64,000 bases of DNA, taken from positions 22,300 through 86,299 of the IMG/VR virus record IMGVR_UViG_3300018421_000015. One strand, written 5' to 3'. A program made the translations under genes and the position numbers. The stretch's first letter is position 1; every line of letters starts with the position of its first letter. The notes under the pieces are model-generated. The model made no database searches, was not told the origin of the DNA, and was given only the letters and a program-made list of their open reading frames with translations. Origin of the DNA: a virus. Positions 30,446 through 53,504 of the stretch are shown one piece after another.

Positions 30446-31426
30446 TTAAAGGTTGAAATTGTTACCATTATAATTCCTAAAAAAAATTCTATCATACTTT
30501 ATATCGTATAATAAATTTAGAATTTCGTGAGCGGAGACCCAAAAATTTTCTCCATGCTTCCAGTTGTGTAAATCTAAAGTAACAGCTTCACCTTGATGTG
30601 GACCGTCACCGGTAAATACGCCTACAGTATTAAAACCAGCTTTAATTATCTGTTCTATCTTTTCTTGTAATTCTTCTTCGTTTTTAGATTCAGCTTTTAG
30701 CTCATAATAATAGTCTTTGTAGTCAGTTTCATACTGAATATACGATCTAGTGAAATACTTTTCCCCACCAGAAACCAGTCCTACGGCGTGGAAGTAGGGA
30801 TTTCTATTTGGAAATTCTGGATAAAGAGGAGATCCTGATGGAAATACTATGAGATCACCTTTTACAGGTTTATAAGGAATAATGCTATCGTCATGATAAA
30901 ATATAATCTCCCCACCCTCATAGTCATCATTAATGTAAAGATTAGCGGTCAATAAAAACTGACGAGACTCCAAAAACCATTTACCAATTTCATAATCTGT
31001 GTGAAACTGCATGGCTAAACCGCCCCATCTTGAATCCCTAGTGTCATCAAGCCATTCGGCTCTAATGTATTTAGCTATATTAGGACTAGTGATTATATGA
31101 TTATCGGGAATGTTTACTTTTTTCAGGTCAACATAATGGTCGATACAGTTTTTGGTAGCATTGCTGATTACTTCTACAATTTCTCTTTCTGCTAAAGCTA
31201 CGGGATTGTCAGGATTTTTTTCAACAATGTCATCATAGTCAGCATATTTAACACCTGTTAAAATATTCGTATACGTCCCGAAAACAAACCACTGAGACCA
31301 CTCTTCTAAAATAAACTCCCCATGACTATTATTCTCACTGTATTTAATCTTGTCCAGCAAAGAGTCAATGTCATCTACAGAATTTTTATATACAATTATT
31401 GATGGGTGTATTTCTTCGAAATCCAT
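30446..31426 (-). CDS. 2OG-Fe(II) oxygenase, P4H-like
   Basis: HTD...YINDDYEGGEI...FHAV...GEKY. Confidence 0.9.
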   Translation of the reverse strand: MDFEEIHPSIIVYKNSVDDIDSLLDKIKYSENNSHGEFILEEWSQWFVFGTYTNILTGVKYADYDDIVEKNPDNPVALAEREIVEVISNATKNCIDHYVDLKKVNIPDNHIITSPNIAKYIRAEWLDDTRDSRWGGLAMQFHTDYEIGKWFLESRQFLLTANLYINDDYEGGEIIFYHDDSIIPYKPVKGDLIVFPSGSPLYPEFPNRNPYFHAVGLVSGGEKYFTRSYIQYETDYKDYYYELKAESKNEEELQEKIEQIIKAGFNTVGVFTGDGPHQGEAVTLDLHNWKHGENFWVSAHEILNLLYDIKYDRIFFRNYNGNNFNL

Positions 31427-31437: not shown

Positions 31438-32025
31438 TCAATTAGGGCTTCTAAAGTTTGCGTAATGATCAATATCTATTACTGTTGGATCGACCCACCA
31501 ATCTTCATGTATGTCTTTAAACAAGAGCGTATAGCCCAAACAGTCTAATATCTCTCTTTGGGAATCGCGCATTCCTGCATTTCTAAAATACATATTAGTG
31601 TCATGCTCGAAAGTAATAACATTAAATCTATACTTACTTAACGGTAAACTAATTAGTCCTAACAAAGTTGTATAATGATTACCAAAAGGTCTTTGAGCGG
31701 GATCATAACCGGCATCTATATCTACCTGCAAAAAATCTATTTGATTGGGAAAATTGTTTTCTTCAAAGTAGCACAGGTAATCAAAACTAAGGGCATCTCC
31801 CAAACACGGGTTTGATCTATTGGAAATAAACTCCTGTCTTCTTTCATCTTCAATTTCAAAAGAAACACCCTTCCAATCAAAATCTCTTTCAAGATAATAG
31901 GTATTACTGCCATGAGTCGAATGAAATGCTCCCAGTTCAACGTAATATCCATTTTTTTTATATTTATTAATATCTAATACAAACTTTTCCTGTCTGCTAT
32001 TTCCATTATAATTCATTGTTTTCAC
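31438..32025 (-). CDS. FkbM-family SAM methyltransferase
   Basis: GYYVELGA...SNTY.LE...WKGV, IDFLQVDID, VITFEHD. Confidence 0.85.
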   Translation of the reverse strand: MKTMNYNGNSRQEKFVLDINKYKKNGYYVELGAFHSTHGSNTYYLERDFDWKGVSFEIEDERRQEFISNRSNPCLGDALSFDYLCYFEENNFPNQIDFLQVDIDAGYDPAQRPFGNHYTTLLGLISLPLSKYRFNVITFEHDTNMYFRNAGMRDSQREILDCLGYTLLFKDIHEDWWVDPTVIDIDHYANFRSPN

Positions 32026-32552
32026 TCAACTTCCCAAAAATAGTTTACTGATATTTTTTGACCTTCTATAACTTCCATTGAACCGTGCAGCAGCTTTGCA
32101 TCAAAAGCTACCATTCTATTTCTTTTAGAATCTATTTTTATATCTAAATCTGGAAAATATAGCTCCCCACCTTCTCTCGGCTGCTCCACAAAGTGAACAG
32201 CTGAGAACACATGTATATCATGATTAACACCATCACCATCTTTATGGTAATTATCTACATGATACCCCTTACTTCCACCTACTGGATATATTATAGCACT
32301 AATGTGGCTTTTTCTTTTTAATTTAGAAAGAAAAATACCCTCAACGTATCCCTGAATAGTGCCACAATAGTCTTCTATGAGCTTGCCCATTTTATGATCA
32401 TGATGAGATGTAAACATATTGGCTCTGTCGCCAGAATGATACTCGTAGCTATCGGGATAGCTTTTAATATACGATTCAACTTGATCTATGTTGTCATACA
32501 TATCATCAATTACAAATATTTTTTCATTTACCTTCTCAATATACTTTAACAT
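32022..32552 (-). CDS. 2OG-Fe(II) oxygenase
   Basis: HVD...EGGELYFP...LHG...GQKIS. Confidence 0.85.
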   Translation of the reverse strand: MLKYIEKVNEKIFVIDDMYDNIDQVESYIKSYPDSYEYHSGDRANMFTSHHDHKMGKLIEDYCGTIQGYVEGIFLSKLKRKSHISAIIYPVGGSKGYHVDNYHKDGDGVNHDIHVFSAVHFVEQPREGGELYFPDLDIKIDSKRNRMVAFDAKLLHGSMEVIEGQKISVNYFWEVE

Positions 32553-32603
32553 AACTATCACAACCTTAAACGCATTTTACCATTTCTGATGGAATCTATC
32601 AAG

Positions 32604-32683: not shown

Positions 32684-33601
32684 TTACAGAAAATCTATCC
32701 ATTCCCTGTTGTAATCTAAGGTGGATAAAAAGTTTTCCTCCATACTTATATCCAATAGGCTTTCAGTATAATGCAAGTGATGATGTAGTCCTGGATGAGC
32801 TTGAGTATCTACAGCCGAGTCCCAGAAATATTTTAGATGATCTGGAATATCGTAGGCGTGTTTGCCGCAGGGGGCTTCAAATGACCAATGTGTATCTTCA
32901 TAATTAAAACAGCCTGTTGAATCAAGACCTTTTATGTATCCAAGATTATAGAAAATATTTTGAGTGTACAAATCCCATGATGATACTGTCACCTCTACTC
33001 CCAGACTCTTACAGATGGCTAAACATAGTTCTAAAGTTTTTATAGTGTCATGAAGCTTGTATTCAACCGATGGAAAATATTTCTTTAAATATGTATCATT
33101 TAACCAAGCTATACGCTTATTATTTATAGTAAAACCCGCTTTAGGATTGAACTCTAAATGTTTCGTATGCATTGTTTTCAGATCGGTAATCTGCGTCCTA
33201 AAAATATCTGGCATGAGGATATAGACCTGTTTCGGTGTTGCTAAATCTTTACAAGAAAGATAGCCCACCAATAGCTCTAGTATAGAAATAATATTAAGGC
33301 CCGGTTGTGCAACAACATTAACTTTATTGCCAGTAATTTGCTGAAGCATATAAGGCCAAGTTAACTGATGGGGAATTCCGACAGAAGCAGTAACTGAACA
33401 GCCAAGCGCAACAACTTCAGCATCGCATGCTATATCTTCTCCTACTATATTAAGGGAATTTTTTTGGTAGGGAAAATCACCGTATACCACTTTATCAATA
33501 TTACCGTATTGTTTAAAGAAAAAATCTACTGACTCGGATTCATGATCCACTGCCAGAACCCTTGCCTCTATTAAAATATTATCTATGTTTATACTTCTCA
33601 T
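32684..33601 (-). CDS. SGNH/GDSL-like protein
   Basis: ALGCSVT block I, WP, and C-terminal D..HPG..HH. Confidence 0.7.
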   Translation of the reverse strand: MRSINIDNILIEARVLAVDHESESVDFFFKQYGNIDKVVYGDFPYQKNSLNIVGEDIACDAEVVALGCSVTASVGIPHQLTWPYMLQQITGNKVNVVAQPGLNIISILELLVGYLSCKDLATPKQVYILMPDIFRTQITDLKTMHTKHLEFNPKAGFTINNKRIAWLNDTYLKKYFPSVEYKLHDTIKTLELCLAICKSLGVEVTVSSWDLYTQNIFYNLGYIKGLDSTGCFNYEDTHWSFEAPCGKHAYDIPDHLKYFWDSAVDTQAHPGLHHHLHYTESLLDISMEENFLSTLDYNREWIDFL

Positions 33602-33609
33602 TACTACTC

Positions 33610-35052
33610 TTAGACTATTCTTACGTGTGGATTAACTTTTTTCCATCTTATTACATCTTTTTCAGAATTTATAAGTGGTTCACCTTTTATGTTTAAACTG
33701 GTATTCAATAATATGGGTATTCCGGTATGATTTTCCCATTCTTTTAAAGTGTGATACAGCCCGGGATGCTGTTGTTCGTTAACTGTTTGAACCCTAGATG
33801 TCCCGTCAACATGTACAACAGACGGTATTTCTTCAGGTCTTTTACACCTGACTGCATATTGCATGTATGGAGAAGGTTTATCAAGATCAAACCAATCACT
33901 AAAAGCATCTTCGGTAACTACGGGTGCAAAAGGTCTAAACATTTCCCTCTTCTTTACCGTGTTCACCTTATCCTTTATGCCTGGATCTCTCGGATCAGCA
34001 AGTATGCTTCTATTACCCAATGCCCTAGGGCCAAACTCTGCCCTACCTGAAGCTACAGCTACGACTGACTTAGATTTAAGCTCTGCTAATATTTTTTCAA
34101 CTGGATACTCTCCAGGAATGTTATGCCCAAGATAAGGACCATTCCAGTTAACATGCTTTTGATCATAGAGCAGAGCTGCACCCAGGCTTGAACCAGCATC
34201 ACCTGGGTTTGGCATAATCCATATATCGTTCCAGTGTTGAATTAATTTTGCATTGGCTGAGCAGTTGAGTGCGCAGCCACCCATATAAACAAGGTTCTTG
34301 CAGCCTGTTAAATTTCTAGCAAACGACATAAATTCTATTAACCTATTCTCAAATACCACCTGAACAGCGGCTGCTATATCAAACTTATCTTGATCTGACC
34401 TTATTTTAAACGGGAAATTATTAACTCCAATGTGAAAGTTTTGAGATTGACTATCAAAAGATGGGAAACTATCGTTTATGTATGAAAAATATCTCCCAGG
34501 ACTGCCAAACCCAGCCATTCCCATAAGAATATATTCCTCTGTTCCAGGAACAAGTCCAAGGAGTTGAGTGTACGCACTATAAAACAGTCCAAAACTAGCG
34601 GGATAATTTATAGAGTATTTTTTTTCTATACTAAAACCATTAGCGTACCAAATGGTAGCAGTTTCAAATTCCCCTATAGCGTCTATGACGACCACTGTTG
34701 CTTCATTAAAGGGGCTTGTATAGTACCCGGCGCACGCATGAGAAAGGTGATGATCTGATTGATACTCCCTTATACCTTTTAGTGAATCAATATTTTTTTT
34801 ATATAATTTATTATATTCACCATTTATTCCACCATATATAAGTCTTCTAATTCTTTTGCTAATTCTGTTTTCATAGTAAGCTATAAAATCTGGAGTACCA
34901 TACGTAAGAGCATCGTTGATCAAGCCATTGCTTATCTGCCAGTCATTTTTAACTCTAGAGTACCTTTCGGAATGACCAGCAAAAAGTATATCAGAGTCAT
35001 GTATCAAAGCAATAGCGGCGTCGTGGCTACAGTCGTTTATCCCCAGTATCAT
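33610..35052 (-). CDS. Carbamoyltransferase (NodU/CmcH/TobZ family)
   Basis: HDAAIAL, ERYSRVK, HHLSHA, GGCALNC, PGDAGSSLG, EFGPRALGNRS, FRPFAP, HVDGTSRVQT, LNTSLN. Confidence 0.95.
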   Translation of the reverse strand: MILGINDCSHDAAIALIHDSDILFAGHSERYSRVKNDWQISNGLINDALTYGTPDFIAYYENRISKRIRRLIYGGINGEYNKLYKKNIDSLKGIREYQSDHHLSHACAGYYTSPFNEATVVVIDAIGEFETATIWYANGFSIEKKYSINYPASFGLFYSAYTQLLGLVPGTEEYILMGMAGFGSPGRYFSYINDSFPSFDSQSQNFHIGVNNFPFKIRSDQDKFDIAAAVQVVFENRLIEFMSFARNLTGCKNLVYMGGCALNCSANAKLIQHWNDIWIMPNPGDAGSSLGAALLYDQKHVNWNGPYLGHNIPGEYPVEKILAELKSKSVVAVASGRAEFGPRALGNRSILADPRDPGIKDKVNTVKKREMFRPFAPVVTEDAFSDWFDLDKPSPYMQYAVRCKRPEEIPSVVHVDGTSRVQTVNEQQHPGLYHTLKEWENHTGIPILLNTSLNIKGEPLINSEKDVIRWKKVNPHVRIV

Positions 35053-35076
35053 ACGGGCATCCAATCATTAAATCTT

Positions 35077-35190
35077 TTAGTATATAAACCTATTTGGTTC
35101 TTTATACTTTTTATTTTTTGTTATGAGAAACATTATTTTTTTAAAACTTTTTTTAATTCTAAATTTAATTAGATTATAAGAAATATTCAC
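35077..35190 (-). CDS. 37-aa basic peptide ending RFIY (not in ORF track)
   Basis: GAGGT RBS, GTG start, MNISYNLIKFRIKKSFKKIMFLITKNKKYKEPNRFIY*. Fills the gap before the carbamoyltransferase. Confidence 0.6.
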   Translation of the reverse strand: MNISYNLIKFRIKKSFKKIMFLITKNKKYKEPNRFIY

Positions 35191-35192
35191 AG

Positions 35193-36305
35193 TTATTTAC
35201 CTCTTTCATTACTAGGTTTGCGAACGACTTTAACATCTGGGAGTGGTTCAGATATTATACTTAAAACTCTTTCAGAAATAGGTCTTTTTAGAAATCTTTC
35301 AGCGTAATGTAATTGTGCATGTATACCGGGATGTGATTTATCAGCTGCTATAGACCAGTAGTTGTGACCAGACATGGGGTGATGTAGGTGGCAATTTTCA
35401 TTGTCAATCTTATCCACAAACCAATGAACTGTATTCATATATGAGTCTAGCTCATCGAGAGAGTCAAAATCCTCGATAGTTTTTACCACTTCTGATTCAC
35501 TCTTATAAATATCATTACACAAAGCTTCATCCGAAATACACAATTTAAGAACCTCGTTGGTAATCATGTCCCATGAAGATACTTTAAGTTCTATACCCAT
35601 GTTACGACATAGTGACTCAATTCTGCATAGTTCAGATATATTCTGCAGTATACCTGATTCAATCGGGTAACTATATCTTTTACCATACAGACCTCTGTAG
35701 GTGTGTGGACCAAGATTCATGTTAGTGGAATAGTCTTTAAAATCTGTAAACCAACTAAAAGACTTTGTGTTAAAAACGTAGTTATCTTTAGAGATAGGAT
35801 CAATTTCCATAACTTTTAATCTAAAAATATCTGGAGAAAGTAAGAACACTTTTTCTGGCTTACCATATAAATCTATATATTTATAAAAACTGTCTAGGCA
35901 GTACGCAATACCCTTTCCTGGATTAGCTAAGACATTGATTGGGTAACCAAGTTCTTTAGATAATATGTAAGGCCATGTCCATTTATGCCAAAGCCCGCAC
36001 CCAGCAGTTACAGAGCAACCAAGTGCTAAGGCAGGGGCTCCCTCTACGAAATCTTCTCCGGGTATACCCAAATTGTTAACTCTATAAAACATATCCTCAA
36101 CGGGAGGATGCCAATGTGAGCCATCAGCATAGAAGGGGGTATCTCCCGCTCTTAAGTAATTAACGTCCCACAAATACTCTGTAATTTGACCATTATCAGA
36201 TGGATCCTTTATTATTCCAACTATCTGAGGTATATCAGAAATTTTGATATTTAAATTTTGAATTGATTTTCTTTTAAAAAAATTCCACATACTAAAACTC
36301 ATCAT
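35193..36305 (-). CDS. SGNH/GDSL-like protein (paralogue of 32684..33601)
   Basis: ALGCSVTAGCG, TWPY.L, PDIFR, VSSWD, DKSHPGIHAQLHY. Confidence 0.72.
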   Translation of the reverse strand: MMSFSMWNFFKRKSIQNLNIKISDIPQIVGIIKDPSDNGQITEYLWDVNYLRAGDTPFYADGSHWHPPVEDMFYRVNNLGIPGEDFVEGAPALALGCSVTAGCGLWHKWTWPYILSKELGYPINVLANPGKGIAYCLDSFYKYIDLYGKPEKVFLLSPDIFRLKVMEIDPISKDNYVFNTKSFSWFTDFKDYSTNMNLGPHTYRGLYGKRYSYPIESGILQNISELCRIESLCRNMGIELKVSSWDMITNEVLKLCISDEALCNDIYKSESEVVKTIEDFDSLDELDSYMNTVHWFVDKIDNENCHLHHPMSGHNYWSIAADKSHPGIHAQLHYAERFLKRPISERVLSIISEPLPDVKVVRKPSNERGK

Positions 36306-37329
36306 CTATATCTACTAGCACATCTTTTAGCTTTATCCCAACTTTATTCTGAAAATCCTTAAAACTTTCTTCATCTGGTGCACCCCAATATCCTATCTCT
36401 TTTCCGGTAAGGATCCTATGTAGTCTAGAAGAAGACCTATTCATCGGATCGTCCGTTTTTATTTCATTATAGAAAAACTTTTCTCTTCTTCTATCAGTTA
36501 AACGACGCCAAGAAATATCGCCATCTTCATAATTAAATCCATTTTCATCGAACTCTTTACCTTTATGATAAAAGTAATTTAAATCAGGAACAAAAATTCT
36601 ATAGCCCCTAGATACAGCCCTTAAAGAAATGGCCTCTTCTTCTCCATAAAAGAATATTTCAGGATCCCATACACACTCAGATAAAAAAGATGTCTTTGCA
36701 AACAAAAAGTTACCAGAAATTATATGGTGCTCCACAACTCCAGAAACCCTTCTATCTACAGTGGTATGAACTTTATTGATATAGTCATAGTTATCATAAA
36801 CTATAGAATCCTCATACATAACATCATTAATAATGATACTACGATACAGAATGTCATCATAGCTAGTATTAAATTGCAACCCTAAGCCTAATGTTGATCT
36901 TGCAAAAGAATAATTATCTTTAATAATTTCATTATTTTTACCTCTACTAAAATTAGGTATCCTATAACTTATAATAGGCTTATCTGCATATCCAAGCAGT
37001 TTCTTAAAGTACTCGACAATATATGTATCCCAGCCCTCATCGAAGATAGTATGAGCATCGACAGCAAGGCAATATTCTTCACCATTGTTTAGATAGTAGG
37101 CGTTGATTCTTGCTAGTCCGGTACCCAACAAGTCTTCTGTTAACACCTTAACGTGTTTTACGTTATCAAACTTGCTAAAATCTGTAAATTTATTATCTGT
37201 TCTTTGTTCATATATCCCAAAAAATAATCTATCCGGATCATCCGCGTTCTCGATAGCTGATTCTACTGTCGTAAATATCTCTTTTTCATCGAATCCATTC
37301 AAGGGAATAAATATACTATCTTTCTGCAC
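36292..37329 (-). CDS. GT60-like glycosyltransferase (Skp1 hydroxyproline GlcNAc-transferase family)
   Basis: A..PDRLFFGIYEQ, G.GLAR, EEYCLAVDAHTIFDEGWD, SGNFLFA, WDPEIFFYGEE..ISLRA..RGY.IFVP. Confidence 0.8.
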   Translation of the reverse strand: MQKDSIFIPLNGFDEKEIFTTVESAIENADDPDRLFFGIYEQRTDNKFTDFSKFDNVKHVKVLTEDLLGTGLARINAYYLNNGEEYCLAVDAHTIFDEGWDTYIVEYFKKLLGYADKPIISYRIPNFSRGKNNEIIKDNYSFARSTLGLGLQFNTSYDDILYRSIIINDVMYEDSIVYDNYDYINKVHTTVDRRVSGVVEHHIISGNFLFAKTSFLSECVWDPEIFFYGEEEAISLRAVSRGYRIFVPDLNYFYHKGKEFDENGFNYEDGDISWRRLTDRRREKFFYNEIKTDDPMNRSSSRLHRILTGKEIGYWGAPDEESFKDFQNKVGIKLKDVLVDIDDEF

Positions 37330-37331: not shown

Positions 37332-37961
37332 CTAGACTTCCTGGGTAATAATTGGCCTATCCCAATACACAGACCAATCAGCGTTGGGAGATTTGTTCGG
37401 AGTTACTGGACCCCAATTCATACTAACCACTAAACGAGATTCTTCTGACTGGTTTCTGGAAGTCATATGCTGTATAAAAGAATTAAAGATAACCAGTGTA
37501 CCAACCTCTGGTTTGATACTCTTTACTCCATTTATTATACCACAATAATTATAGGTGAAGACCAGTTCCGCTGAACCTTCTGGAACCTGTGGATAATATG
37601 TTACACTGTAATACTCAGACGGATCTAAATGGAGATTTGAGTGATGAGTATGTGATATTACACTTTGATTTTTAACCAGATCAACAGCCCACGTATCATT
37701 TAATTGATATTCTTTTCCGAATAAAAATTTAAGCCTGTCTGCCACAGTTGATTCAAGTTTTGAAATTTCAGGAGTTACGGGCATAACCAGATCTTCAAAC
37801 TGAACAAAACCCCTTGAAACCACACCGTAATCTGGGCAGTCTTGGTCTATTGTTTTAGAATACTTTTTAATATCATTAGATATAATTTCTGGATCAACCT
37901 CATCAAGCTTATCGGTCCAAATGCAAAGATCTATTAATGGGATTTGATTAATCTTATTCAT
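37332..37961 (-). CDS. 2OG-Fe(II) oxygenase (TIGR02466-like)
   Basis: WAV...SHTH...SVTYY...LVIFNS...H...RLVVSMN. Confidence 0.8.
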   Translation of the reverse strand: MNKINQIPLIDLCIWTDKLDEVDPEIISNDIKKYSKTIDQDCPDYGVVSRGFVQFEDLVMPVTPEISKLESTVADRLKFLFGKEYQLNDTWAVDLVKNQSVISHTHHSNLHLDPSEYYSVTYYPQVPEGSAELVFTYNYCGIINGVKSIKPEVGTLVIFNSFIQHMTSRNQSEESRLVVSMNWGPVTPNKSPNADWSVYWDRPIITQEV

Positions 37962-38640
37962 AATAAAAATCCCCAGTTGAAAGAGCAGAAGGTGGACTAT
38001 CCTTATGCCACACATTGACAACCATTACTTGCCTAATGCCAGAATTGGTTACAGTAGTTTCATGCAACCTTCTACCGGCATCAAAGCATATCAACCTGTT
38101 AGGGACATAGGCCAATCTTTCTCTTTTTTCTGGCGGAGATGTTAGTCTATCAACATTCTCTCTCTCCAGAGCGTCTTCTGGACTTCCCTCTATCCATCCC
38201 TCATGAAGTTCTAGAAAGCCAGGATCTACACTTTCTTCAAAGCCATACCAAACACAACCATATGCTGGAGCATTGAAGCGTCGCTCCTTCTGGTACGCAA
38301 AAGTATCTTCGTCTACATGGATCCTTAGATACTGCCCTTGCATAAAAGTTCTAGTCCAGTATTCAAATCCACATATTTCCGAAAGTGGGAAAGGAAGAAA
38401 AGATTCATTACCCCATATTTCTTGGACAACTTTCTTACGTAAAGTATCGGCCTCAGAATTCCACCAACCATCCCAAAACATATATGGGGCGTAGCAGTCG
38501 GCGGCTTCATCGTGGAAATGGTTATTAGTTTCACCTATATTATAAACATCACCCATTGTCTCAGGAAAAAAGGTTTTATCATTTTTAATTGAATTGATTA
38601 GATTAGCATCTTTGATAAAATTATCTATAACTATCATCAT
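37954..38640 (-). CDS. 2OG-Fe(II) oxygenase-like
   Basis: GFEYW, HVDED, PNRLICFD...LHET...RQVMVVNVW. Confidence 0.8.
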   Translation of the reverse strand: MMIVIDNFIKDANLINSIKNDKTFFPETMGDVYNIGETNNHFHDEAADCYAPYMFWDGWWNSEADTLRKKVVQEIWGNESFLPFPLSEICGFEYWTRTFMQGQYLRIHVDEDTFAYQKERRFNAPAYGCVWYGFEESVDPGFLELHEGWIEGSPEDALERENVDRLTSPPEKRERLAYVPNRLICFDAGRRLHETTVTNSGIRQVMVVNVWHKDSPPSALSTGDFYYE

Positions 38641-39464
38641 GCCTCACTCATTATGCTAAATGTATACTCATCGTGTTTGAACCCCCATCTTCCAGTAAAC
38701 TTTCTGTCTTCGGAAGAAAAACCACCTAAGACAGCATGGTAGCAGCAGAACGTATCAACAAAGACTAAATCACCTTGACTCCATGATAGGTAGTGAATCA
38801 CTTCAGGGTAGTCGTCCTGCACGGCATCTGACACACCTGGAATATCATCAAAGAATCTTTCTTCCTTTGCGGTCGGCTTTTTGCCATCAACGGAATGAAG
38901 ACAGTCACCCCCTCTTGGGCTAAGCCTTAAGCACATGTCGCCTGTTACCGGATGTTCTGCTATAGCAGATCTGATTTCGCTTGAAAAGGAATTTCCCTTT
39001 TCATCTGGATCACTAGATTTTACTTTAACTTCACATTTCTTTAAAAAATTTAATTGATCCGCTGATAGTAGATTAAGAATGTCGGCACTATCTATAAAAA
39101 TTGTTCTACCACTAGTGGTTTCGCATGAAAAGCTATGCATGTTCCAGCTTCCAATCACAGGAGGAGTACTAGACTGAATATGTTCTAGGTGCCAATCTAT
39201 TAAAAGTATATTAGGTTCATTTATTTTTTTAGAGGTAACGTGAGAATGATCTTCATCATAAGAGAAATCTAATATCTTGTTGTGCTCTGGTGCCGGAAAA
39301 TATCCCAGTCTGGAATGGAACTGTTGAGATATTAGCCTGTGCTGATCTTCTGTAATGTTTATTTTCTTGAACTGTAAAACTTTGTTTTGTTTAAATAAAT
39401 CTATATAATAATCTATATTTGACTCTAACTCATCATAAGATGTATCTATCTGAACTATGCGCAT
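38637..39464 (-). CDS. TauD/TfdA-family dioxygenase
   Basis: WHLE, GRTIFID, HPVTG, WSQGDLVFVD...YH...R. Confidence 0.85.
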   Translation of the reverse strand: MRIVQIDTSYDELESNIDYYIDLFKQNKVLQFKKINITEDQHRLISQQFHSRLGYFPAPEHNKILDFSYDEDHSHVTSKKINEPNILLIDWHLEHIQSSTPPVIGSWNMHSFSCETTSGRTIFIDSADILNLLSADQLNFLKKCEVKVKSSDPDEKGNSFSSEIRSAIAEHPVTGDMCLRLSPRGGDCLHSVDGKKPTAKEERFFDDIPGVSDAVQDDYPEVIHYLSWSQGDLVFVDTFCCYHAVLGGFSSEDRKFTGRWGFKHDEYTFSIMSEA

Positions 39465-40543
39465 GTTGTACTATATTCCTTTAAGGCTGTAACAATTCTT
39501 TTTACCTGATAAGTTTCAAGAGAAGGATATCCAGGTATACTAACCACTTCCTCGCAGCAGGCGCTGGTATTCTTTAGATGTATTTTATCATTATACCAAG
39601 CTGGCTGCAAATAATCTGGAGTAGGGTAATGGATAGCTGTACTGACACCCGCCTCACTCATGTAATGACAAAAGTCTATTCTATTTTTGACTCTTAAAAC
39701 ACTTAAATGAAATATACTAGTGGCGATGTTGCCAACCCAGGGTAAGTTGGGTAAAGAATTTTGATAAATCTCATTTAGTATTTTTCTTTTAGTATTATTG
39801 TTATCTAGTAACTGCAATTTTTCTACTAAACATGCGGCCTGAAACTCATCCATTCTTGAGTTTATTCCATCTTTGGTAGAAGCAACAAATCTATTAACCC
39901 ATCCATACTGTCTTAGGATTCTTACTTTTTCGGCTATTCCATAATCCGAAGTGCAAACTGCCCCTGCGTCACCATTTGATCCAAGATTTTTTGTTGGATA
40001 AAAACTGAAGGCTGAGCAGTCCCCCATAGAGCCAGCCCTTACTCCGTTAATTTCTGAACCGTGAGCTTGTGCACAGTCTTCTATTATCATGATATTACCT
40101 GGAAGATTTTTCCTAATTGCTTCCACGTCAACACATTGACCATATAAGTGAGTTATGATAATAGCTTTAGTTTTATCTGTTAAACTTAAATTAATCATCT
40201 CGGGTTCGATAAGGCAGTGTTCATCAACATCTATATAAATAGGAGTTGCTCCCAGCCTGGATATAGCTAAACTTGAATACCCCCCAGCGTTTGCTACGGT
40301 CATAACTTCATCGCCAGCAGTAACGCCACATGCAGCTAGACATATTTGAATGGCATCTGTTCCATTTGCTAACCCGCAACAGTATTTAGTTCCAATATAA
40401 TCAGAAAACATAGATTCAAATTGATATACATATTTAGAATTTAAATATAATCCTGAATCTATAATATTAAATATGTTAATCTTTATCTTATCTTCTACGG
40501 ATTGAAAATCTTTCCTAGGATTATGTAACGGTATCAACTCCAT
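39455..40543 (-). CDS. DegT/DnrJ/EryC1/StrS PLP-dependent sugar aminotransferase
   Basis: ANGTDA, HLYGQ, IEDCAQAHG, SFYPTKNLG..GDAG, NSRMDEFQAA. Start set at ATG 40543. Confidence 0.93.
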   Translation of the reverse strand: MELIPLHNPRKDFQSVEDKIKINIFNIIDSGLYLNSKYVYQFESMFSDYIGTKYCCGLANGTDAIQICLAACGVTAGDEVMTVANAGGYSSLAISRLGATPIYIDVDEHCLIEPEMINLSLTDKTKAIIITHLYGQCVDVEAIRKNLPGNIMIIEDCAQAHGSEINGVRAGSMGDCSAFSFYPTKNLGSNGDAGAVCTSDYGIAEKVRILRQYGWVNRFVASTKDGINSRMDEFQAACLVEKLQLLDNNNTKRKILNEIYQNSLPNLPWVGNIATSIFHLSVLRVKNRIDFCHYMSEAGVSTAIHYPTPDYLQPAWYNDKIHLKNTSACCEEVVSIPGYPSLETYQVKRIVTALKEYSTTCA

Positions 40544-40547
40544 ATAT

Positions 40548-41366
40548 TTAAAGGTTACCCCATTTGTGGTGGGGCACTGTGAATCCGCCCTGAAGCCTAG
40601 TAAAGACTCTTTCGCCATCTTTCCACCCGGAAGAATATGTGTGCAATAAGTTTGTATTATCCCATATGATAGCTTTACCTTCTTGCCATTCCCAGGTGAT
40701 CCAATTTGAATTGTCATGAAAGTAGTCATCGATAAACTCTTCATACTCTGACTCCAAGGACATATCTTCAGCAATAACCTTGTGTTTATAGCTAGTGAAA
40801 GCAAAGTTATCTATTCCGGTAACTGGGTGACTTATTATTCCTGGCATGTTTCTTAGGGGCCATCTTTTTCCACCCCAGTCTATACCGTTAACTCCACCAG
40901 TATCTTTTTCACCGATTAAGCCTACGACATGTATTTGCTTCATCCATTCCCTTATATGATCTGGAGTTTGCTGTAACATTTTTTCTCTGTCTAAGAAAAA
41001 AGTTTTACCATACTCACCTGAACACGTGAAGACGTCCATGACCATGCCTATCAATCGACATACTGCCAGGTTAGGGTTAGCTACTTCAGCGATATCGGAG
41101 TGAATGTTATACCAAATAAAATCTTTATGTTCGTTTTCGTAACCTTCAGGAGCAATCCTCTCTTGTCCATTGTGCTGATTATTTGGACTGACGACAACCT
41201 GATTTGCTTCGCAATCTGCCATGTGCATTATTAAGGTATTTAATCCAACTTCATTAAATACACTAAATTTGTTGAAGCCAATTATTTTTTCCTCGATAAA
41301 TAAGTTCCTAAGATAATCTATCTTATGAGGTATGTCATCATCTTTTAATTCATCTAAAACTATCAT
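40548..41366 (-). CDS. TauD/TfdA-family dioxygenase
   Basis: HSD, GKTFFLD, HPVTG, WQEG..IIWDN...H...R. Confidence 0.85.
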   Translation of the reverse strand: MIVLDELKDDDIPHKIDYLRNLFIEEKIIGFNKFSVFNEVGLNTLIMHMADCEANQVVVSPNNQHNGQERIAPEGYENEHKDFIWYNIHSDIAEVANPNLAVCRLIGMVMDVFTCSGEYGKTFFLDREKMLQQTPDHIREWMKQIHVVGLIGEKDTGGVNGIDWGGKRWPLRNMPGIISHPVTGIDNFAFTSYKHKVIAEDMSLESEYEEFIDDYFHDNSNWITWEWQEGKAIIWDNTNLLHTYSSGWKDGERVFTRLQGGFTVPHHKWGNL

Positions 41367-42139
41367 AACTCTTTAAGACCAACTTTCTGAGAGTCAGATA
41401 TTAGGTCTGGCATCCAGATCTTATACGGATTGTCTGATCCTATATATTCCTGATCGTTAGAGAAATCGACACCATAACATGCCATAGTTAAAAATGCATA
41501 TCGGGCCCCTTCAGTCACGGGGAACACTTCATGTCTTCCAATATAGTTAGAAGGATATATTAAAACAGTTCCAGCCTTAGGCGCATAGACTGTTCCTATA
41601 TTGGGGAAGTGCATTTCTCCACCCTGGTAATCTTCGCCACAGTTATTCAGATACAAATTGACACTAGTACTATTGTGCATGGAAACTTGATTTTGTGGAC
41701 GAGTGCCCCAATCCCATGGTACCTGATCATCACAATGCGGACCTATATGTTGACCATCCTCGTAGCCAGCAATATGGCCTCTGGGTCTCCACCAGGCAGT
41801 CGTAGCAGCGTCGGGGAAATAAGCGCAGTACTCAACCAGGGCATCATAAATTGCGTCTTCGCATTGCTGAACAAACTCCACCCATTCAGGTTTAGGTTCA
41901 CGGCCTACTTGCTCACCTTTTAGATCTAAAAATCTTTGAGGTGCTAACTGAACATCGTCTACCTTAAACTTGAATCCAGTCTTATTCTTGGCATATTTGA
42001 TACCGTCTTCTTCATAGTAAGTAAAACTATCTTCCTCATTTTTCTTAAGCCAAGATGTATACTCCATAAGTAGGTTGTTGTCTATTTTTATAACGTCTTC
42101 GCATGCGACGATTCCCATTCCTAAGTGTTCTGATTTCAC
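41363..42139 (-). CDS. 2OG-Fe(II) oxygenase (tandem paralogue 4)
   Basis: WWRPRGH...HCD...GGE..F...HEV...R. Confidence 0.9.
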   Translation of the reverse strand: MKSEHLGMGIVACEDVIKIDNNLLMEYTSWLKKNEEDSFTYYEEDGIKYAKNKTGFKFKVDDVQLAPQRFLDLKGEQVGREPKPEWVEFVQQCEDAIYDALVEYCAYFPDAATTAWWRPRGHIAGYEDGQHIGPHCDDQVPWDWGTRPQNQVSMHNSTSVNLYLNNCGEDYQGGEMHFPNIGTVYAPKAGTVLIYPSNYIGRHEVFPVTEGARYAFLTMACYGVDFSNDQEYIGSDNPYKIWMPDLISDSQKVGLKEL

Positions 42140-42148
42140 AATATTCCT

Positions 42149-43030
42149 TTACGTATTTAAATTTGTTACCTTATATTGATCTGAACTTGTGTCATAGCCC
42201 TTTTCTTGCAGGTAAGATCTGTAATCTTCTCTCAAAGTAGGTAGGTAAACATTGGTACTAATTCTACCCAACTCTGGCTCTTTAACTGGGTCACATACAG
42301 CTTCATACACATCTGAATTAGGTGTACCTTGACTATACCACCCCAAGTAACTGACCCTATGCCCTTTCCCTACTGGCTTAACCTCGTGTGCAGCCATATA
42401 ATTTGAAGGAAACATCATAATATCTCCGGCCTGCGGTTTATAGTCTATATTTAAATAGTTGAAGTAATGATGACCTTCGGTAAAGTTATTCTCGCTTAAT
42501 TCATCTTCTGAATCAACAGAATCATTTACATATACTATGCAAGATATCACATTGCGTAAAGCTAACTCATTAGATGTTTGGTGGACTCCGTAAATATACT
42601 CTGCACTTATATCAGAATGCGAACCCAGGTAAACGCCATCCTTGTACGATACAACATGACCCTTGACCTTCCACCATACACAGTTGTATGCTAGGGGAAA
42701 TAGTTCAAAATATTTAAGTAAGTATCTATCTTTAGACTGCTCTAAAAAATCAAATAATGTATGAACTTCCTCCCTACCATCTTGATGCATCATAGATGCT
42801 CTTCTGGGCATTGCGTCAACTGACTGCTTACTAAACAGGTAGCCACTCTTATTTATGTAAGCTTCCTCACCAGTCTCGGGATCAATAGTTAACTTATACA
42901 TATCGGCGTGCTCTTCATCAAGAGCCCTACAGAATATCTCGTAGGTCCAGTCATAATCATAGCTTACAGCCCCCCTAAATATGACTACACCTCCACCAAG
43001 ATGCTCCGCATCTACATCATTGAAAATCAA
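42149..43030 (-). CDS. 2OG-Fe(II) oxygenase (tandem paralogue 3)
   Basis: WWKVKGH...HSD...FPSNYMAAHEV...R. Confidence 0.9.
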   Translation of the reverse strand: MIFNDVDAEHLGGGVVIFRGAVSYDYDWTYEIFCRALDEEHADMYKLTIDPETGEEAYINKSGYLFSKQSVDAMPRRASMMHQDGREEVHTLFDFLEQSKDRYLLKYFELFPLAYNCVWWKVKGHVVSYKDGVYLGSHSDISAEYIYGVHQTSNELALRNVISCIVYVNDSVDSEDELSENNFTEGHHYFNYLNIDYKPQAGDIMMFPSNYMAAHEVKPVGKGHRVSYLGWYSQGTPNSDVYEAVCDPVKEPELGRISTNVYLPTLREDYRSYLQEKGYDTSSDQYKVTNLNT

Positions 43031-43914
43031 CTGCTTACCTCTTCTTTTGTATTGGAACTATGAAAAATTCTATTTACAGGGAGAAGTTTATGTTCATCAT
43101 AATTTTCTCCATAGTATTCTATCACATAATTCTTATAGTCGCTAAATAGGTTTGGCATCCAGGTTTGACCACTAGTTTTACCTGGACTAGGTTCGGAAAC
43201 ATTCACACCCCTATCTGGATCAGATGACCCCTGACCAAAGTATTCTAGAAAAGCATACCTATTGCCTAGAGAAACACCAGCTACTTGATGAGTGCACATA
43301 TAATTTGCTGGAAACATAAGGATATCACCCTTACTTGGAACATATGTTACTCCAGCGTAGGGGAAGTGTATCTCTCCACCAACAAAGTTGTTTCCTTCAA
43401 TTGTATTTTTTGAAGAATTAAAATATGTAATAGCGGCTAACACATGCCTAATACCAAGTTGAAAATCTGGTTCAAATCCAGGAGAAAAGTTGATATCATT
43501 ATCGCAATGAAGCCCTAAGTCTGAGCCGGGCCCATAAGCTAAAACATGACCGTGAGTTTTCCACCATAAACATGGAAGAACCATAGGATATATTGATGCA
43601 TACTCGATCATAGATTGATATATTGCTAGTTCACATTCCCTAAAGAAAGAAGTCTGCCAATCTTCAGTGCAAGATGAGTAGAAATCTGTGATTCTACTAC
43701 AATTTTTATCTATATCCTCAAGCTTAAACCTATGACCGCTTTTATTTGTAGCATAGAGAACATGACCTTCGTCATCATAAACGTACGAATAGTGTTTTTT
43801 TCTCGCCTCTTTTTTTAGAGACAAAAGAAAATCTGCTAGTCCATCAGGTACATTGATTTTATTTTTAAATAAAACTATACCAGAACCCAGTAGCTCTGCG
43901 CCTATGGGTAACAT
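43027..43914 (-). CDS. 2OG-Fe(II) oxygenase (tandem paralogue 2)
   Basis: WWKTHGH...HCD...FPANYMCTHQV...R. Confidence 0.9.
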   Translation of the reverse strand: MLPIGAELLGSGIVLFKNKINVPDGLADFLLSLKKEARKKHYSYVYDDEGHVLYATNKSGHRFKLEDIDKNCSRITDFYSSCTEDWQTSFFRECELAIYQSMIEYASIYPMVLPCLWWKTHGHVLAYGPGSDLGLHCDNDINFSPGFEPDFQLGIRHVLAAITYFNSSKNTIEGNNFVGGEIHFPYAGVTYVPSKGDILMFPANYMCTHQVAGVSLGNRYAFLEYFGQGSSDPDRGVNVSEPSPGKTSGQTWMPNLFSDYKNYVIEYYGENYDEHKLLPVNRIFHSSNTKEEVSS

Positions 43915-43916
43915 GA

Positions 43917-45032
43917 TTACCCCTGATCTATAGCTACTGGATCAGTTCCACAGTTTGCTGAATCACCTGTGTCCAAAGACTCCGCTTCGTGTGTTTCTCC
44001 GTACTGAGCTACGCATCTGCCTTGATAAACCGGGTTAAGACCTATGTAAGTTTCCTCTCCCGTAGTAAACCTAGAGTATTCCGATTTACAATATCTCTCA
44101 TAATCATCATATATTGTATTCATCCACATAGCTGGGCACCACTGTATCGAATCTTGTGGTTCGACTATCTGGATATTTGCTTCTGCGTGACCGGAGCCCT
44201 GACCGAAGAAAGATAGATAACTATAACGAACACCTCCGGTCATTCTGTCAACCTCATGTGAAGCCATATAATTAGTTGGAAAAAATACTATATCACCTTT
44301 TTGTGGCTTGTATTCAACATCTAGGTGGAAAAATCTAAGATGACCACCCATAAAAGTATTTCTACCATCCATCTCTTCTTCTGTGTCTACACAATCATTG
44401 AGGTAAACTAACGCACCACATGTTTGTCTAGCAGCCATTTGGCCTCTTGGCATGTATCGAACGCCTTCGGTCACTTTATAGTTTGTATCATTATCGCAGT
44501 GTGCTCCAAGGACACCATCACCCTCGTATCTTAATATATGGCCACGATTTCTCCACCACAAGCAGCCGACTATTAAAGGATAATAATCAGTGTATTTAAT
44601 CAGGCACTTGTAAATCGTATCTTCCATATTGTAAAAGAAGTCACGAACAACGTCTGGGGTTTCATCATGAATAGGATGAAGAATTCTTACCGGAGTTGCA
44701 GGAATATCTTCTGGTCTATACCTAAACCCATCTTCATTGATACCATAGGTTTCACCATCTTCAGCCTCAATATATTCCCACCTATGATGATGAGATATAG
44801 AAGCCATGTGGTCTAAATAATCAAAAACTGGTTCTCTATCGAACTTAAGAACATCTTTAAACACTAGAATACCCGGACCAATTACATCAACTTTGTAGCC
44901 TGATATTTCCTTAATATCTTCATCGGTTAATTTTGGTGTGTCAGGAAAAGCTGTATTAGCAACGTATCTTTTACCGACTTCATTTTCACTGGCTGGATCA
45001 AAAGTCTGATCCTCTAAAACATCATTAGACAT
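43917..45032 (-). CDS. 2OG-Fe(II) oxygenase (tandem paralogue 1)
   Basis: WWRNRGH...HCD...FPTNYMASHEV...R. Confidence 0.9.
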   Translation of the reverse strand: MSNDVLEDQTFDPASENEVGKRYVANTAFPDTPKLTDEDIKEISGYKVDVIGPGILVFKDVLKFDREPVFDYLDHMASISHHHRWEYIEAEDGETYGINEDGFRYRPEDIPATPVRILHPIHDETPDVVRDFFYNMEDTIYKCLIKYTDYYPLIVGCLWWRNRGHILRYEGDGVLGAHCDNDTNYKVTEGVRYMPRGQMAARQTCGALVYLNDCVDTEEEMDGRNTFMGGHLRFFHLDVEYKPQKGDIVFFPTNYMASHEVDRMTGGVRYSYLSFFGQGSGHAEANIQIVEPQDSIQWCPAMWMNTIYDDYERYCKSEYSRFTTGEETYIGLNPVYQGRCVAQYGETHEAESLDTGDSANCGTDPVAIDQG

Positions 45033-51259: not shown

Positions 51260-51265
51260 AAAAAC

Positions 51266-51276
51266 AGTATACCACA
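51266..51276 (-). promoter_or_regulatory. extended -10 promoter, leaderless
   Basis: TGTGGTATACT lies 6 nt upstream of ATG 51259 and there is no SD. Confidence 0.6.
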
Positions 51277-51308
51277 ACCTACCCCGGACTATCAATCCGG
51301 GGTAGGTT
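51276..51308 (-). terminator. intrinsic terminator-like hairpin after the FN3/PPFF gene
   Basis: Perfect 13-bp stem AACCTACCCCGGA/TCCGGGGTAGGTT with a 7-nt loop. Confidence 0.75.
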
Positions 51309-53471: not shown

Positions 53472-53504
53472 TTTCTACACCTATCTTAAATTTAAACCTA
53501 AACA

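Follow-up and report, generated by a model that had tools for sequence, protein, structure and literature searches.

A GT60-like glycosyltransferase gene tied to prolyl-hydroxylase-like genes in phages and marine bacteria: a possible route to hydroxyproline glycosylation

Results

The glycosyltransferase gene and its family

The DNA analysed here, called the window, is a stretch of 64,000 nt covering positions 22,300-86,299 of the virus record IMGVR_UViG_3300018421_000015, a contig of 86.3 kb that comes from a large uncultured phage and is 41% complete. A minus-strand island of the window contains a glycosyltransferase (GT) gene, oxygenase genes, a carbamoyltransferase gene and a gene for a protein of the tail-fibre region (Table 1). 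The GT gene is tightly packed: only 2 nt separate the stop codon of the preceding PF13759-type gene from its start, its own stop is overlapped or abutted by the next gene, and 7 nt ahead of the start there is a Shine-Dalgarno-like hexamer, AGGAAG. Counts of promoter-like sites (70, compared to 70.3 expected) and terminator-like sites (10, compared to 12.0 expected) were uninformative.

Table 1. Genes of the window considered in this study. GT, glycosyltransferase; P4H, prolyl 4-hydroxylase; 2OG, 2-oxoglutarate.
Feature	Position	Strand	Remarks
Protein without family match	32684..33601	-	29% identical to the product of 35193..36305; the two genes flank the carbamoyltransferase gene
NodU/CmcH-type carbamoyltransferase	33610..35064	-	Within block 32684..36305
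Protein without family match	35193..36305	-	Paralogue of the product of 32684..33601
GT60-like (PF11397) soluble GT-A glycosyltransferase	36292..37329	-	345 aa; GTG start; D91-A-H93
2OG-Fe(II) oxygenase, PF13759 type	37332..38021	-	33.1 bits; adjoins GT
228-aa protein, no family match	37954..38640	-	64% identity in L006
TauD-like / DegT-type aminotransferase / TauD-like block	38637..41366	-	Pfam
DegT-type aminotransferase	39455..40804	-	Pfam match from residue 108
Four tandem prolyl-hydroxylase-like 2OG oxygenase genes	41363..45032	-	PF13640
Glutathione-peroxidase-family gene	47561..48181	-	Family match
DUF6065 protein	48458..49183	-	Pfam PF19541
P4H-like gene, block downstream of the PPxF-tail gene	49183..50070	-	PF13640, above cut-off
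P4H-like gene, block downstream of the PPxF-tail gene	50067..50678	-	PF13640, above cut-off
P4H-like gene, block downstream of the PPxF-tail gene	50636..51295	-	PF13640, 22.9 bits, below cut-off
718-aa tail-fibre-region protein, candidate acceptor	51315..53471	-	24 tandem PPxF units, residues 622-717
Further GT	57915..58955		PHROG 13126 'beta-1,4-glycosyltransferase'
532-aa tail-fibre protein	61742..63340	-	Collagen-like run (mostly G-P-T), residues 211-267

A preliminary description of this DNA had taken the ORF for a GT60-type enzyme on account of a motif set that includes DAH, and both points held when the profile search was run. The ORF is real, and its product matched the Pfam family PF11397, 'Glycosyltransferase (GlcNAc)', with 94.9 bits (E 9.2e-27) compared to a curated cut-off of 21, as well as PHROG 24687, 'glycosyltransferase' (E 2e-23). 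We take PF11397 as equivalent to CAZy GT60. When the contig was searched in six frames with PF11397, the same single gene was returned, and the family was present in all of the 49 metagenome homologues. Because all 23 aligned homologues, and all 15 sequences of a second set, have D91 and H93, the DAH tripeptide at residues 91-93 is a conserved family motif and not a chance occurrence. We assume that this DxH motif binds a metal, a role carried over from GT27. PF11397 is the sole Pfam family in the protein; a C-terminal ricin-type lectin domain is absent, and the N-terminus has no hydrophobic segment, the first strand beginning at residue 6. In the available part of one account, GT60 enzymes are described as being without the ricin-type lectin domain of GT27, and as including both Hyp-type and Ser/Thr-type enzymes (PMC8724618).

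Relatives in the databases were distant. A megablast search of positions 30000-45000 against phage records found no close phage relative; tblastn with the GT against phage records matched only Xanthomonas phage XacN1 (24.6% identity), and the helicase and fibre protein of the window had only distant matches there. With the single GT protein as the query, the PDB yielded no solved GT60 structure at E up to 10, and a profile of the GT gave only a spurious match (E 1.8).

The fold was therefore approached with an AlphaFold model (pLDDT 83.7). The best 28 PDB entries for this model were all GT27 polypeptide GalNAc-transferases, with Z scores of 19.4-22.2 and rmsd of 3.0-4.1 A across 252-282 residues at an identity of 10-16%, compared to Z scores of at most 19 for generic GT-A enzymes; Foldseek returned E values down to 2.7e-11. 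The protein is not itself a GT27 member, for it has no sequence match to that family in the PDB, no lectin domain and no membrane anchor. The profile match and the predicted fold identify the product as a GT-A glycosyltransferase of the PF11397/GT60 family that is soluble and cytoplasmic.

Oxygenases and other genes of the island

The co-location with prolyl-hydroxylase-like genes, also reported in the preliminary description, was confirmed. PF13640 gave 10 matches on the 86.3-kb contig, 9 of which were above the cut-off and all of which fell within the window, and a PF13759-type and two TauD-type oxygenases lie near the GT. The best PDB matches of a profile of the P4H-like genes were to the P4H of B. 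anthracis (E about 4e-20), prolyl 3-hydroxylase 1 (E 2e-17) and the P4H of chlorovirus PBCV-1 (PDB 5c5t, E 1.3e-13); the profile also matched an EF-Tu-type hydroxylase entry (4iw3) and PHD2 entries and, weakly, Tet-like dioxygenases, with E values of 1.5e-4 and 2.5e-4. The residues of the HxD...H iron triad, H127, D129 and H180, were invariant in 18 of 18 P4H-like sequences. By these residues the PF13640 genes of the window encode HxD...H 2OG-Fe(II) oxygenases of the double-stranded beta-helix type, with a predicted specificity for prolyl residues.

The gene for the 228-aa protein is kept beside the GT in its closest relatives, and in L006 it stands directly upstream of the GT. The preliminary description had suggested that DegT may supply an unusual amino sugar. 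L005 and L029 have homologues of the DegT gene two genes upstream of the GT, a synteny limited to the 4 closest loci. Because its Pfam match begins so far into the protein, the true start of DegT may be further in; comparison with PseC, ArnB and DesI models gave partial matches, all far below the cut-offs. The carbamoyltransferase follows the GT in the window and in L011, L017 and L028, and the gene order GT - DUF6065 - paralogue - carbamoyltransferase was also present in these three loci. The two proteins flanking the carbamoyltransferase had no Pfam or NCBIfam match; the possibility that they are divergent GT60 paralogues was rejected (hhalign probability 0.1-0.9%), and they are paralogues of each other.

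In related phages, the genes most often found directly beside a GT60-like gene were those of DUF6065 and DUF6065-like proteins. In the window DUF6065 is 11 kb from the GT and the PPxF-tail gene 14 kb. A low-confidence model of DUF6065 (pLDDT 64.3) resembles dUTPases (Z 10-10.9). With this model and an hhalign probability of about 0.1%, the idea that DUF6065 and DUF6065-like proteins are cryptic P4H-type oxygenases was rejected on present evidence. Thiol-peroxidase domains of the AhpC/TSA type are fused to some GT60+P4H proteins elsewhere.

Linkage of the two enzymes in phages, bacteria and fusion proteins

The comparison set comprised 79 related phage loci, reaching as far as 10 kb to either side of the GT and containing 56 distinct GT sequences. 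A P4H-like ORF was present in 22 of the 79 loci, at a distance of 1 kb or less from the GT in 14 and of 100 bp or less in 7, counts that are inflated because of near-identical contigs and shared ancestry. When counted on the 56 distinct GT sequences, the corresponding numbers were 19, 12 and 6. The order of the two genes varies among phage lineages, and in 2 of the 3 complete phage genomes with both genes they are at least 33 kb apart.

The association extends to bacteria. Among 38 bacterial loci that contain a GT ORF, 12 also had a P4H-like ORF, in 10 cases within 50 bp. Nine divergent P4H-like/GT pairs belonged to SAR86/Gammaproteobacteria and were located amid housekeeping genes, and no repeat-protein gene was found beside the bacterial pairs. 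In addition, in 11 of 194 family proteins examined, one to five GT60-like domains were naturally fused to a P4H-like domain; these fusions derive from metagenome contigs and were examined at the protein level. In three of the four fusion proteins submitted to Pfam, PF11397 and PF13640 were both above the cut-off. Phage synteny, bacterial gene pairs and PF11397+PF13640 fusions thus provide genomic evidence for the functional tie between the GT and prolyl-hydroxylase-like enzymes that had been proposed from the window.

Candidate acceptor proteins

The preliminary description had named two kinds of repeat as likely acceptors, and only one of them gained support. Three P4H-like genes and DUF6065 follow immediately downstream of the gene for the (PPxF)24 tail. 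Tandem tracts of proline and aromatic residues were found in 9 of the 79 loci, in each case at 296-3042 bp from the GT, and they also occurred in further lineages. In the tail, the native hydroxyls are those of Tyr only, save for a single Ser in the final unit (PPSF), and therefore Hyp would supply acceptor sites. Collagen-like GPT/GNP repeats, on the other hand, obtained no comparative support: runs of at least 6 GXY triplets occurred in 6 of the 79 loci, 752-8777 bp from the GT and never adjacent to it.

In these data, the composition of the tails followed the presence of P4H. Phe-type tails with P4H in the locus were found in the window, L061, L017, L051, L148, L159 and L162, and one more in L015, a truncated locus with no P4H; Tyr-type tails occurred with no P4H in L014, L130, L032/L134, L013 and L012. 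This pattern is a lead only, because all of the Tyr-type loci are in one clade, and the correlation may reflect a single evolutionary event. In that well-supported clade, the GT and a DUF6065-like gene stand beside Tyr-rich tails (YYAAPQ, YHAP, YYAPPV). Since the clade keeps the GT without P4H, the GT is not universally in need of Hyp.

Discussion

The genetic ties described above suggest that the phage may hydroxylate, and then coat with sugar, one of its own fibre proteins. In the scheme we propose, the P4H-like 2OG oxygenases of the minus-strand island would first hydroxylate prolines of a phage structural protein, and the best candidate stretch is the (PPxF)24 tail at the C-terminus of the 718-aa fibre-region protein. 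The GT, which most likely acts after one or more of these enzymes, would bind a nucleotide-HexNAc donor at the D91-x-H93 metal site, by analogy with its structural relatives, and transfer the sugar to the new hydroxyl of the polypeptide. The NodU-type carbamoyltransferase encoded downstream may next O-carbamoylate the sugar. These steps would all take place within the infected cell, ahead of virion assembly. As a whole, with hydroxylation of the fibre-tail prolines, glycosylation by the GT60-type enzyme and possible O-carbamoylation, we give this scheme nearly an even chance. Besides the points raised for the rival readings below, the distances of the GT from DUF6065 and from the PPxF-tail gene in the window speak against it, as does the wide separation of GT and P4H-like genes in two complete phage genomes.

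The closest parallel is the Skp1 pathway of Dictyostelium and Toxoplasma, in which the prolyl 4-hydroxylase PhyA acts before Gnt1 (CAZy GT60). In both systems the GT belongs to the same Pfam family, is soluble and cytoplasmic, and has genetic ties to a P4H-type 2OG oxygenase, and the order from Pro to Hyp to sugar-O-Hyp would be the same, as far as the phage side can be predicted from its genes. However, the acceptor of the protist pathway is a single Pro in Skp1, whereas that of the phage would be a repetitive tail of a virion protein, and the phage has at least 10 oxygenase paralogues compared to one in the Skp1 pathway. In that pathway, GTs of the PgtA/AgtA type extend the Hyp-GlcNAc of Skp1, with a pentasaccharide as the end product; the phage enzymes are accompanied by DUF6065, carbamoyltransferase and peroxidase instead, and only one other GT was seen in the window. 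We know of no Skp1 in bacteria or phages, and no PF01466 match was found in the contig (41% complete), with control genomes equally silent.

Other systems share parts of the scheme. The chlorovirus PBCV-1 also encodes a P4H with a Pro-rich tandem-repeat viral protein as its likely substrate, but its host is a eukaryotic alga and the phage repeats are Pro-aromatic; to our knowledge, the PBCV-1 enzyme has no GT60 partner. In the Mimivirus, a collagen-like protein carries glucosylated hydroxylysine, and BclA of B. anthracis has Thr-linked glycans on (GPT)n. In these cases too, a repeat fibre on the surface of a virus or spore is modified by a dedicated hydroxylase and/or GT, but the acceptors are Lys or Thr, the GTs are of other families, and collagen-like runs were not associated with the GT in the loci we examined. 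In plants and green algae, P4H hydroxylates the Pro-rich repeats of extensins and AGPs and the Hyp is then glycosylated, according to the available part of the source (PMC8724618). These proteins differ from the phage system in that other GT families, Ara/Gal sugars and the secretory pathway are involved.

The main competitor is that the GT is a mucin-type O-HexNAc transferase acting on Ser/Thr (or Tyr), either in the Ser/Thr modules of the fibre or in the G-P-T fibre, so that Hyp is unneeded and the oxygenases do something else. The animal GT27 ppGalNAc-Ts, whose catalytic domains are the best structural matches (Z about 22), are specific for Ser/Thr, and they share the fold and the DxH motif with the phage GT, as do the mucin-type alpha-GlcNAc-transferases of T. 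cruzi and Dictyostelium. These last show that GT60 includes pp-GlcNAc-transferases for Ser/Thr, and they have in common with the phage GT the absence of a lectin domain, both as far as the available part of the source goes (PMC8724618). Apart from its tail, the 718-aa protein has a very high content of Ser/Thr. PF13640 was absent in 55 of the 79 related phage records, including one of six that were at least 90% complete; one complete genome of 108 kb and one 83%-complete record were among those without it. The clade with the GT beside Tyr-rich tails also favours acceptors of this kind. The protist and animal enzymes reside in the Golgi membrane, while the phage GT is unanchored and travels with hydroxylases. 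Against an acceptor of this kind, pairs and fusions of P4H and GT recur in bacteria and metagenome proteins; Ser/Thr are almost absent from the tail of the window itself; and the rarity of collagen-like runs near the GT disfavours the G-P-T fibre. We regard an acceptor of this type as unlikely, though with a substantial chance.

Alternatively, the GT might act in one pathway with DegT, TauD, the carbamoyltransferase, P450 and the halogenase to build or modify an amino-sugar metabolite or a host surface polysaccharide, with no protein involved. The immediate neighbours of the GT (the PF13759 oxygenase, TauD, DegT and carbamoyltransferase) would fit small-molecule or glycan chemistry as well, a P450 and a tryptophan-halogenase homologue share the island, and GT2 and GT-D-like genes accompany the GT60-like gene in 24 related loci. 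Against this, the fold match is specific to polypeptide transferases and exceeds that to generic GT-A enzymes, no sugar-nucleotide dehydratase, flippase or polymerase was found among the scanned ORFs of the window, the SAR86 pair lies amid housekeeping genes outside any polysaccharide cluster, and in many phages the GT is inside the tail-fibre module. Such a role appears improbable to us.

A target in the host is quite improbable. The P4H-like/GT pair might act on a cytoplasmic protein such as a ribosomal protein or a translation factor, for takeover or for oxygen-linked regulation like the chromosomal pair of SAR86. The setting of the bacterial pairs, with housekeeping genes and no repeat protein around them, the profile matches to the EF-Tu-type hydroxylase and PHD2 entries, and a fusion protein named 'Rps23 Pro-64 dihydroxylase Tpa1-like' by its source are in line with this. 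The phage module, however, is within the tail-fibre gene block beside repeat tails, and its 10 or more paralogous oxygenases are more easily reconciled with a repetitive substrate than with one site. Glycosylation of hydroxylated DNA bases, with some of the oxygenases being TET/JBP-like, is highly improbable: the weak Tet-like matches and a UDG-superfamily gene in the window would agree with it, but prolyl hydroxylases scored at least 10 orders of magnitude above the Tet enzymes, the GT is closest to polypeptide transferases, and the scanned ORFs included no hydroxymethylase.

Hydroxylation and glycosylation of fibre-tail prolines may be one case of a wider system. Tailed phages and some marine bacteria, SAR86 and others, would own a P4H/GT60 machinery for Hyp-O-glycosylation, often with a thiol peroxidase and DUF6065 of dUTPase fold, which in phages decorates Pro-aromatic fibre tails; such a system would have no precedent beyond eukaryotes, and the PhyA/Gnt1 pathway of Skp1 could plausibly be its evolutionary relative or derive from it. 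We advance this broader reading tentatively, as somewhat less likely than not. As far as we know, hydroxyproline glycosylation has been described only in eukaryotes, in plant cell walls and on protist Skp1. Our literature search, which did not reach supplementary files, found no paper on a phage or bacterial GT60-P4H system, and viral GT60 appeared only as a passing dbCAN label in the accessible parts of two preprints.

The hypothesis is directly testable with the fusion proteins and the gene pair of SAR86. If it is true, a P4H and a soluble GT would make a compact set, expressible in E. coli, for the production of Hyp-glycopeptides. The chemistry of Hyp glycosylation would be extended to prokaryotes and their viruses, and the expansions of 2OG-Fe(II) oxygenases in large aquatic phages, which have long been puzzling, would have a possible explanation. 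Fibre tips that are chemically decorated would then be a variable in host recognition.

Glycosyltransferase gene and its predicted fold

The window runs from base 22300 to base 86299 of a viral contig that is 86.3 kb long and has an estimated completeness of 41%. The gene of the GT60-like glycosyltransferase (hereafter GT) lies in a succession of 12 same-strand ORFs, from 45828 down to 35193, that overlap or are separated by gaps of at most 50 bp. An AGGAAG hexamer is located 7 nt upstream of its start, the preceding gene has its stop codon 2 nt before that start, and the gene downstream overlaps the GT stop or directly adjoins it. Simple scans for promoter and terminator sites gave the same result as for shuffled sequence.

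Features of the window discussed in the text
Feature	Position	Strand	Remark
JAB (PF14464), ThiF/E1-like (PF00899) and AAA ATPase genes	739-5131	+	consecutive; prokaryotic JAB
UDG-superfamily protein	11526-12263	+	
SpoU-type RNA methyltransferase homologue	15731-16462	+	
Tryptophan-halogenase homologue	20460-21968	-	PHROG 2928, E 8e-94
PF13640 gene	21970..22563	same as GT	
PF13640 gene	23195..23899	same as GT	
Cytochrome P450	29134-30357	+	PF00067, 92.6 bits; same island as oxygenases
PF13640 gene	30446..31426	same as GT	
PF13640 gene	32022..32561	same as GT	
GT	36292..37329	-	345 aa, start codon GTG
PF13759 oxygenase	37332..38021	-	
TauD-like oxygenase	38637..39464	-	
TauD-like oxygenase	40548..41366	-	
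Four PF13640 genes	41363..45032	-	
Glutathione-peroxidase-family gene	47561-48181	-	present too in closest relatives
DUF6065 protein	48458-49183	-	
Two PF13640 genes	49183..50678	-	
Weak PF13640 match	50636..51295	-	
718-aa protein	51315..53471	-	tail-fibre and minor-tail PHROG matches
Tail-fibre-like genes	51315..63340		

Judging from its gene content, the plus-strand set at 739-5131 looks like a phage system for ubiquitin-like conjugation or deconjugation.

The preliminary description had called the GT a GT60-type enzyme with a DAH motif, and this family assignment is secure. Its sole Pfam family was PF11397 ('Glycosyltransferase (GlcNAc)'; E 9.2e-27, 94.9 bits, cut-off 21), and it matched PHROG 24687 ('glycosyltransferase') at 2e-23; NCBIfam gave no match. 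All 49 homologues found by a word-indexed search carried PF11397, one of them being 98% identical to the GT, one 72%, one 55% and the remainder at most 39%. D91 and H93 of the DAH motif were among 21 invariant columns in an alignment of 23 homologues. Clustered at 50% identity, PF11397 had 4856 representatives at E 1e-3, 3383 at 1e-10 and 1073 at 1e-30. Of the 30 ESM Atlas clusters nearest to the GT, 27 belonged to PF11397, mostly viral, and IMG/VR held at least 249 relatives; among cultured phages, XacN1 was the sole match (24.6% identity).

An AlphaFold model of the GT, with the 23-sequence alignment as input, reached a pLDDT of 83.7 and a pTM of 0.86. Foldseek against the PDB placed GT27 polypeptide GalNAc-transferases (ppGalNAc-Ts) on top, with E from 2.7e-11. 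After re-alignment with VIA-align, the top 28 entries were ppGalNAc-Ts (T1, T2, T4, T7, T10, T12, PGANT9 and TgGalNAc-T3; Z 19.4-22.2, rmsd 3.0-4.1 A over 252-282 residues), and generic GT-A enzymes ranked next with Z of at most 19. No PDB chain was matched by sequence. The GT has neither an N-terminal hydrophobic segment nor a lectin domain. Because of the PF11397 match, the ppGalNAc-T-like fold and the absence of these two elements, we consider the GT60 observation confirmed; from sequence and model, the GT is best described as a candidate soluble polypeptide-type HexNAc-transferase. A review (PMC8724618) presents GT60 enzymes as pp-alpha-GlcNAc-transferases, kin of the ppGalNAc-Ts but devoid of the ricin-like domain, with Ser/Thr-type and hydroxyproline (Hyp)-type (Skp1) members.

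Association with prolyl-hydroxylase-like genes

In 79 IMG/VR phage loci, the ORFs up to 4 kb from the GT were clustered and then searched by profile. A prolyl-hydroxylase-like (P4H-like) ORF was present in 22 of the 79; its distance from the GT was at most 1 kb in 14 loci and at most 100 bp in 7, but these co-occurrence counts, like the bacterial ones, include near-identical contigs and related lineages and are therefore not independent events. Over the 56 distinct GT sequences, the corresponding numbers were 19, 12 and 6. Searches of whole records placed PF13640 in 24 of the 79; six of the 79 records were at least 90% complete, and five of those six had the family. A recurrent gene order was tail-fibre-like, repeat-tail, P4H-like, DUF6065 and GT (L010, L011, L017, L028, L051 and L061), sometimes extended past the GT by P4H-like, DUF6065, a paralogue of no known family and a carbamoyltransferase. 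Most of the island in the window is common to its closest relatives (L003-L006 and L029), with different orders and orientations.

Co-location with prolyl-hydroxylase-like genes, as first described, held up in a six-frame search of the contig, which gave 10 PF13640 matches, 9 of them above the cut-off. A profile of the PF13640 genes in the window and their phage homologues had an invariant H, D, H. Its best solved structures were the P4H of B. anthracis (~4e-20), P3H1 (2e-17) and the PBCV-1 P4H (1e-13), followed by collagen P4H alpha-2, a Chlamydomonas P4H and PHD2; Tet-like enzymes reached ~1e-4 at most.

In bacteria, with each species represented by one genome, a scan yielded 39 GT60-like loci, chiefly from SAR86 and other Gammaproteobacteria. 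A GT ORF was called in 38 of them; twelve of these had a P4H-like ORF, which was within 50 bp in 10. Nine pairs, in SAR86/Gammaproteobacteria, were divergent and one (L110) was on the same strand; in an additional locus, a 1.4-kb fragment, the P4H-like gene was directly upstream. The pair in L113 (PF13640 63.7 bits, PF11397 150.7 bits) sits among UvrD, an RpiR-type regulator and MazG, and not within a polysaccharide cluster. This MazG-type pyrophosphohydrolase directly follows the GT60-like gene (L113:9035-9451), and an equivalent ORF occurs in L098, L105 and L116 (SAR86).

Fusions were surveyed in 194 proteins (150 best representatives plus earlier matches). As judged from the protein sequences, 11 fusions joined one to five GT60-like domains to a P4H-like domain, and one (P0063) joined a GT60-like to a DUF6065-like domain. 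Four of the GT60-P4H fusions were searched against Pfam: three (P0051, P0113 and P0128) had PF11397 and PF13640 above cut-off, and the fourth (P0120) gave no families but PF11397 and AhpC/TSA; P0051 also had an AhpC/TSA peroxiredoxin domain. One fusion cluster contained three members of 911-913 aa, on 24-45 kb contigs, and one of 494 aa. In P0051-P0058 and other very large metagenome proteins, which reach 2461 aa, PF11397 domains occurred in tandem, two to five per protein, and some of these proteins had P4H and peroxiredoxin domains as well.

Phage synteny, bacterial pairs and natural fusions bear out the proposed tie between the GT and prolyl-hydroxylase-like enzymes and argue for a functional partnership of GT60-like and P4H-like proteins in phages and bacteria, which we regard as well supported at the sequence level. 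Our literature search found no account of a GT60-P4H system for phages or bacteria.

Other genes of the island

No other gene type was seen directly beside phage GT60-like genes as often as DUF6065 and DUF6065-like genes (e.g. L014:11046-11759 and L052:9300-9998): 29 of the 79 loci had one, in 25 cases no more than 1 kb and in 20 no more than 100 bp from the GT. By hhalign, the two groups are related to each other (probability 97.1%, E 6e-11). A low-confidence model of DUF6065 (pLDDT 64.3) resembled trimeric dUTPases (Z 10-10.9); the protein might handle nucleotides or nucleotide sugars, or serve as a scaffold. The glutathione-peroxidase-family gene in the island and the AhpC/TSA domains fused to GT60 or GT60-P4H proteins (P0051 and P0120) indicate that thiol peroxidases recur with the GT60-P4H system, where they perhaps clear peroxide from uncoupled 2OG-oxygenase turnover. 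The island also includes the P450, the tryptophan-halogenase homologue, a NodU-like carbamoyltransferase flanked by two mutual paralogues without family match, and an aminotransferase of the DegT type, which partially matched the PseC, ArnB and DesI models at scores far under their cut-offs.

Candidate acceptors and the proposed pathway

At the C-terminal end of the 718-aa protein, residues 622-717 form 24 PPxF units in tandem (PPYF, PPFF and a last PPSF); the gene of this protein is directly followed by three P4H-like genes and DUF6065. Under a strict periodicity test, nine of the 79 loci had tandem Pro-plus-aromatic tracts, in 9 ORFs altogether; these lay 296-3042 bp away from the GT in every case, in loci spanning at most 10 kb on each side. 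A further scan, focused on this clade, brought in more tail lineages, with the units PPSFPI, PPFF, PPTFTA and YAAPEYY. Some lineages (L031:157-2421, L037, L039-L041 and L062) have just upstream of the GT a protein in which the repeat tail is replaced by an end with a weak intein/Hint-type match, under the Pfam cut-off; one of these proteins has PASTA domains.

In the proposed pathway, the PPxF tail would be hydroxylated, the GT would add HexNAc to the resulting Hyp, and carbamoylation could be the last step. We hold this full chain in the window phage tentatively, at somewhat less than an even chance. The main rival is Hyp-independent glycosylation of Ser, Thr or Tyr in fibre proteins. To our knowledge, apart from Gnt1, the Skp1 Hyp GlcNAc-transferase of Dictyostelium, the relatives characterised by structure or biochemistry are only Ser/Thr-acceptor GT60 and GT27 enzymes. 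Several observations also argue against the Hyp reading: a PF13640 gene is missing from 55 of the 79 related phage records, two other GT clades are accompanied by GT2/GT-D-like or GT1-like genes, of three complete genomes with both genes whose coordinates were checked, two have GT and PF13640 at least 33 kb apart, and in the window the GT is most closely flanked by oxygenases other than P4H, by DegT and by the carbamoyltransferase.

Of the acceptors first suggested, collagen-like repeats gained no comparative support: such runs occurred in 6 of the 79 loci, none adjoining the GT. The Pro of the G-P-T run in the window has no Gly after it. The PPxF suggestion gained support: the PPxF tail lies beside P4H-like genes and Pro-plus-aromatic tracts lie near the GT. 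Lineages with Tyr-type tails (YYAAPQ, YYAPPV, YHAP and APTPTYF), including one 83%-complete record, lack P4H-like genes. Their Tyr-rich tails occur with a GT60-like and a DUF6065-like gene (L012-L014, L026, L032, L130 and L134). P4H-like genes are in the locus with the Phe-type tails of the window, L061, L017, L051, L148, L159 and L162 (units PPFF, PFFPFF, PPVFT and PPSFPI); L015, also Phe-type, has none, and its contig ends 0.9 kb past the GT. Since the Tyr-type loci all fall in one supported clade, this pattern may reflect a single historical event. It fits a GT that would need a hydroxyl group on its acceptor, either native to Tyr or Thr or made by a P4H-like partner.
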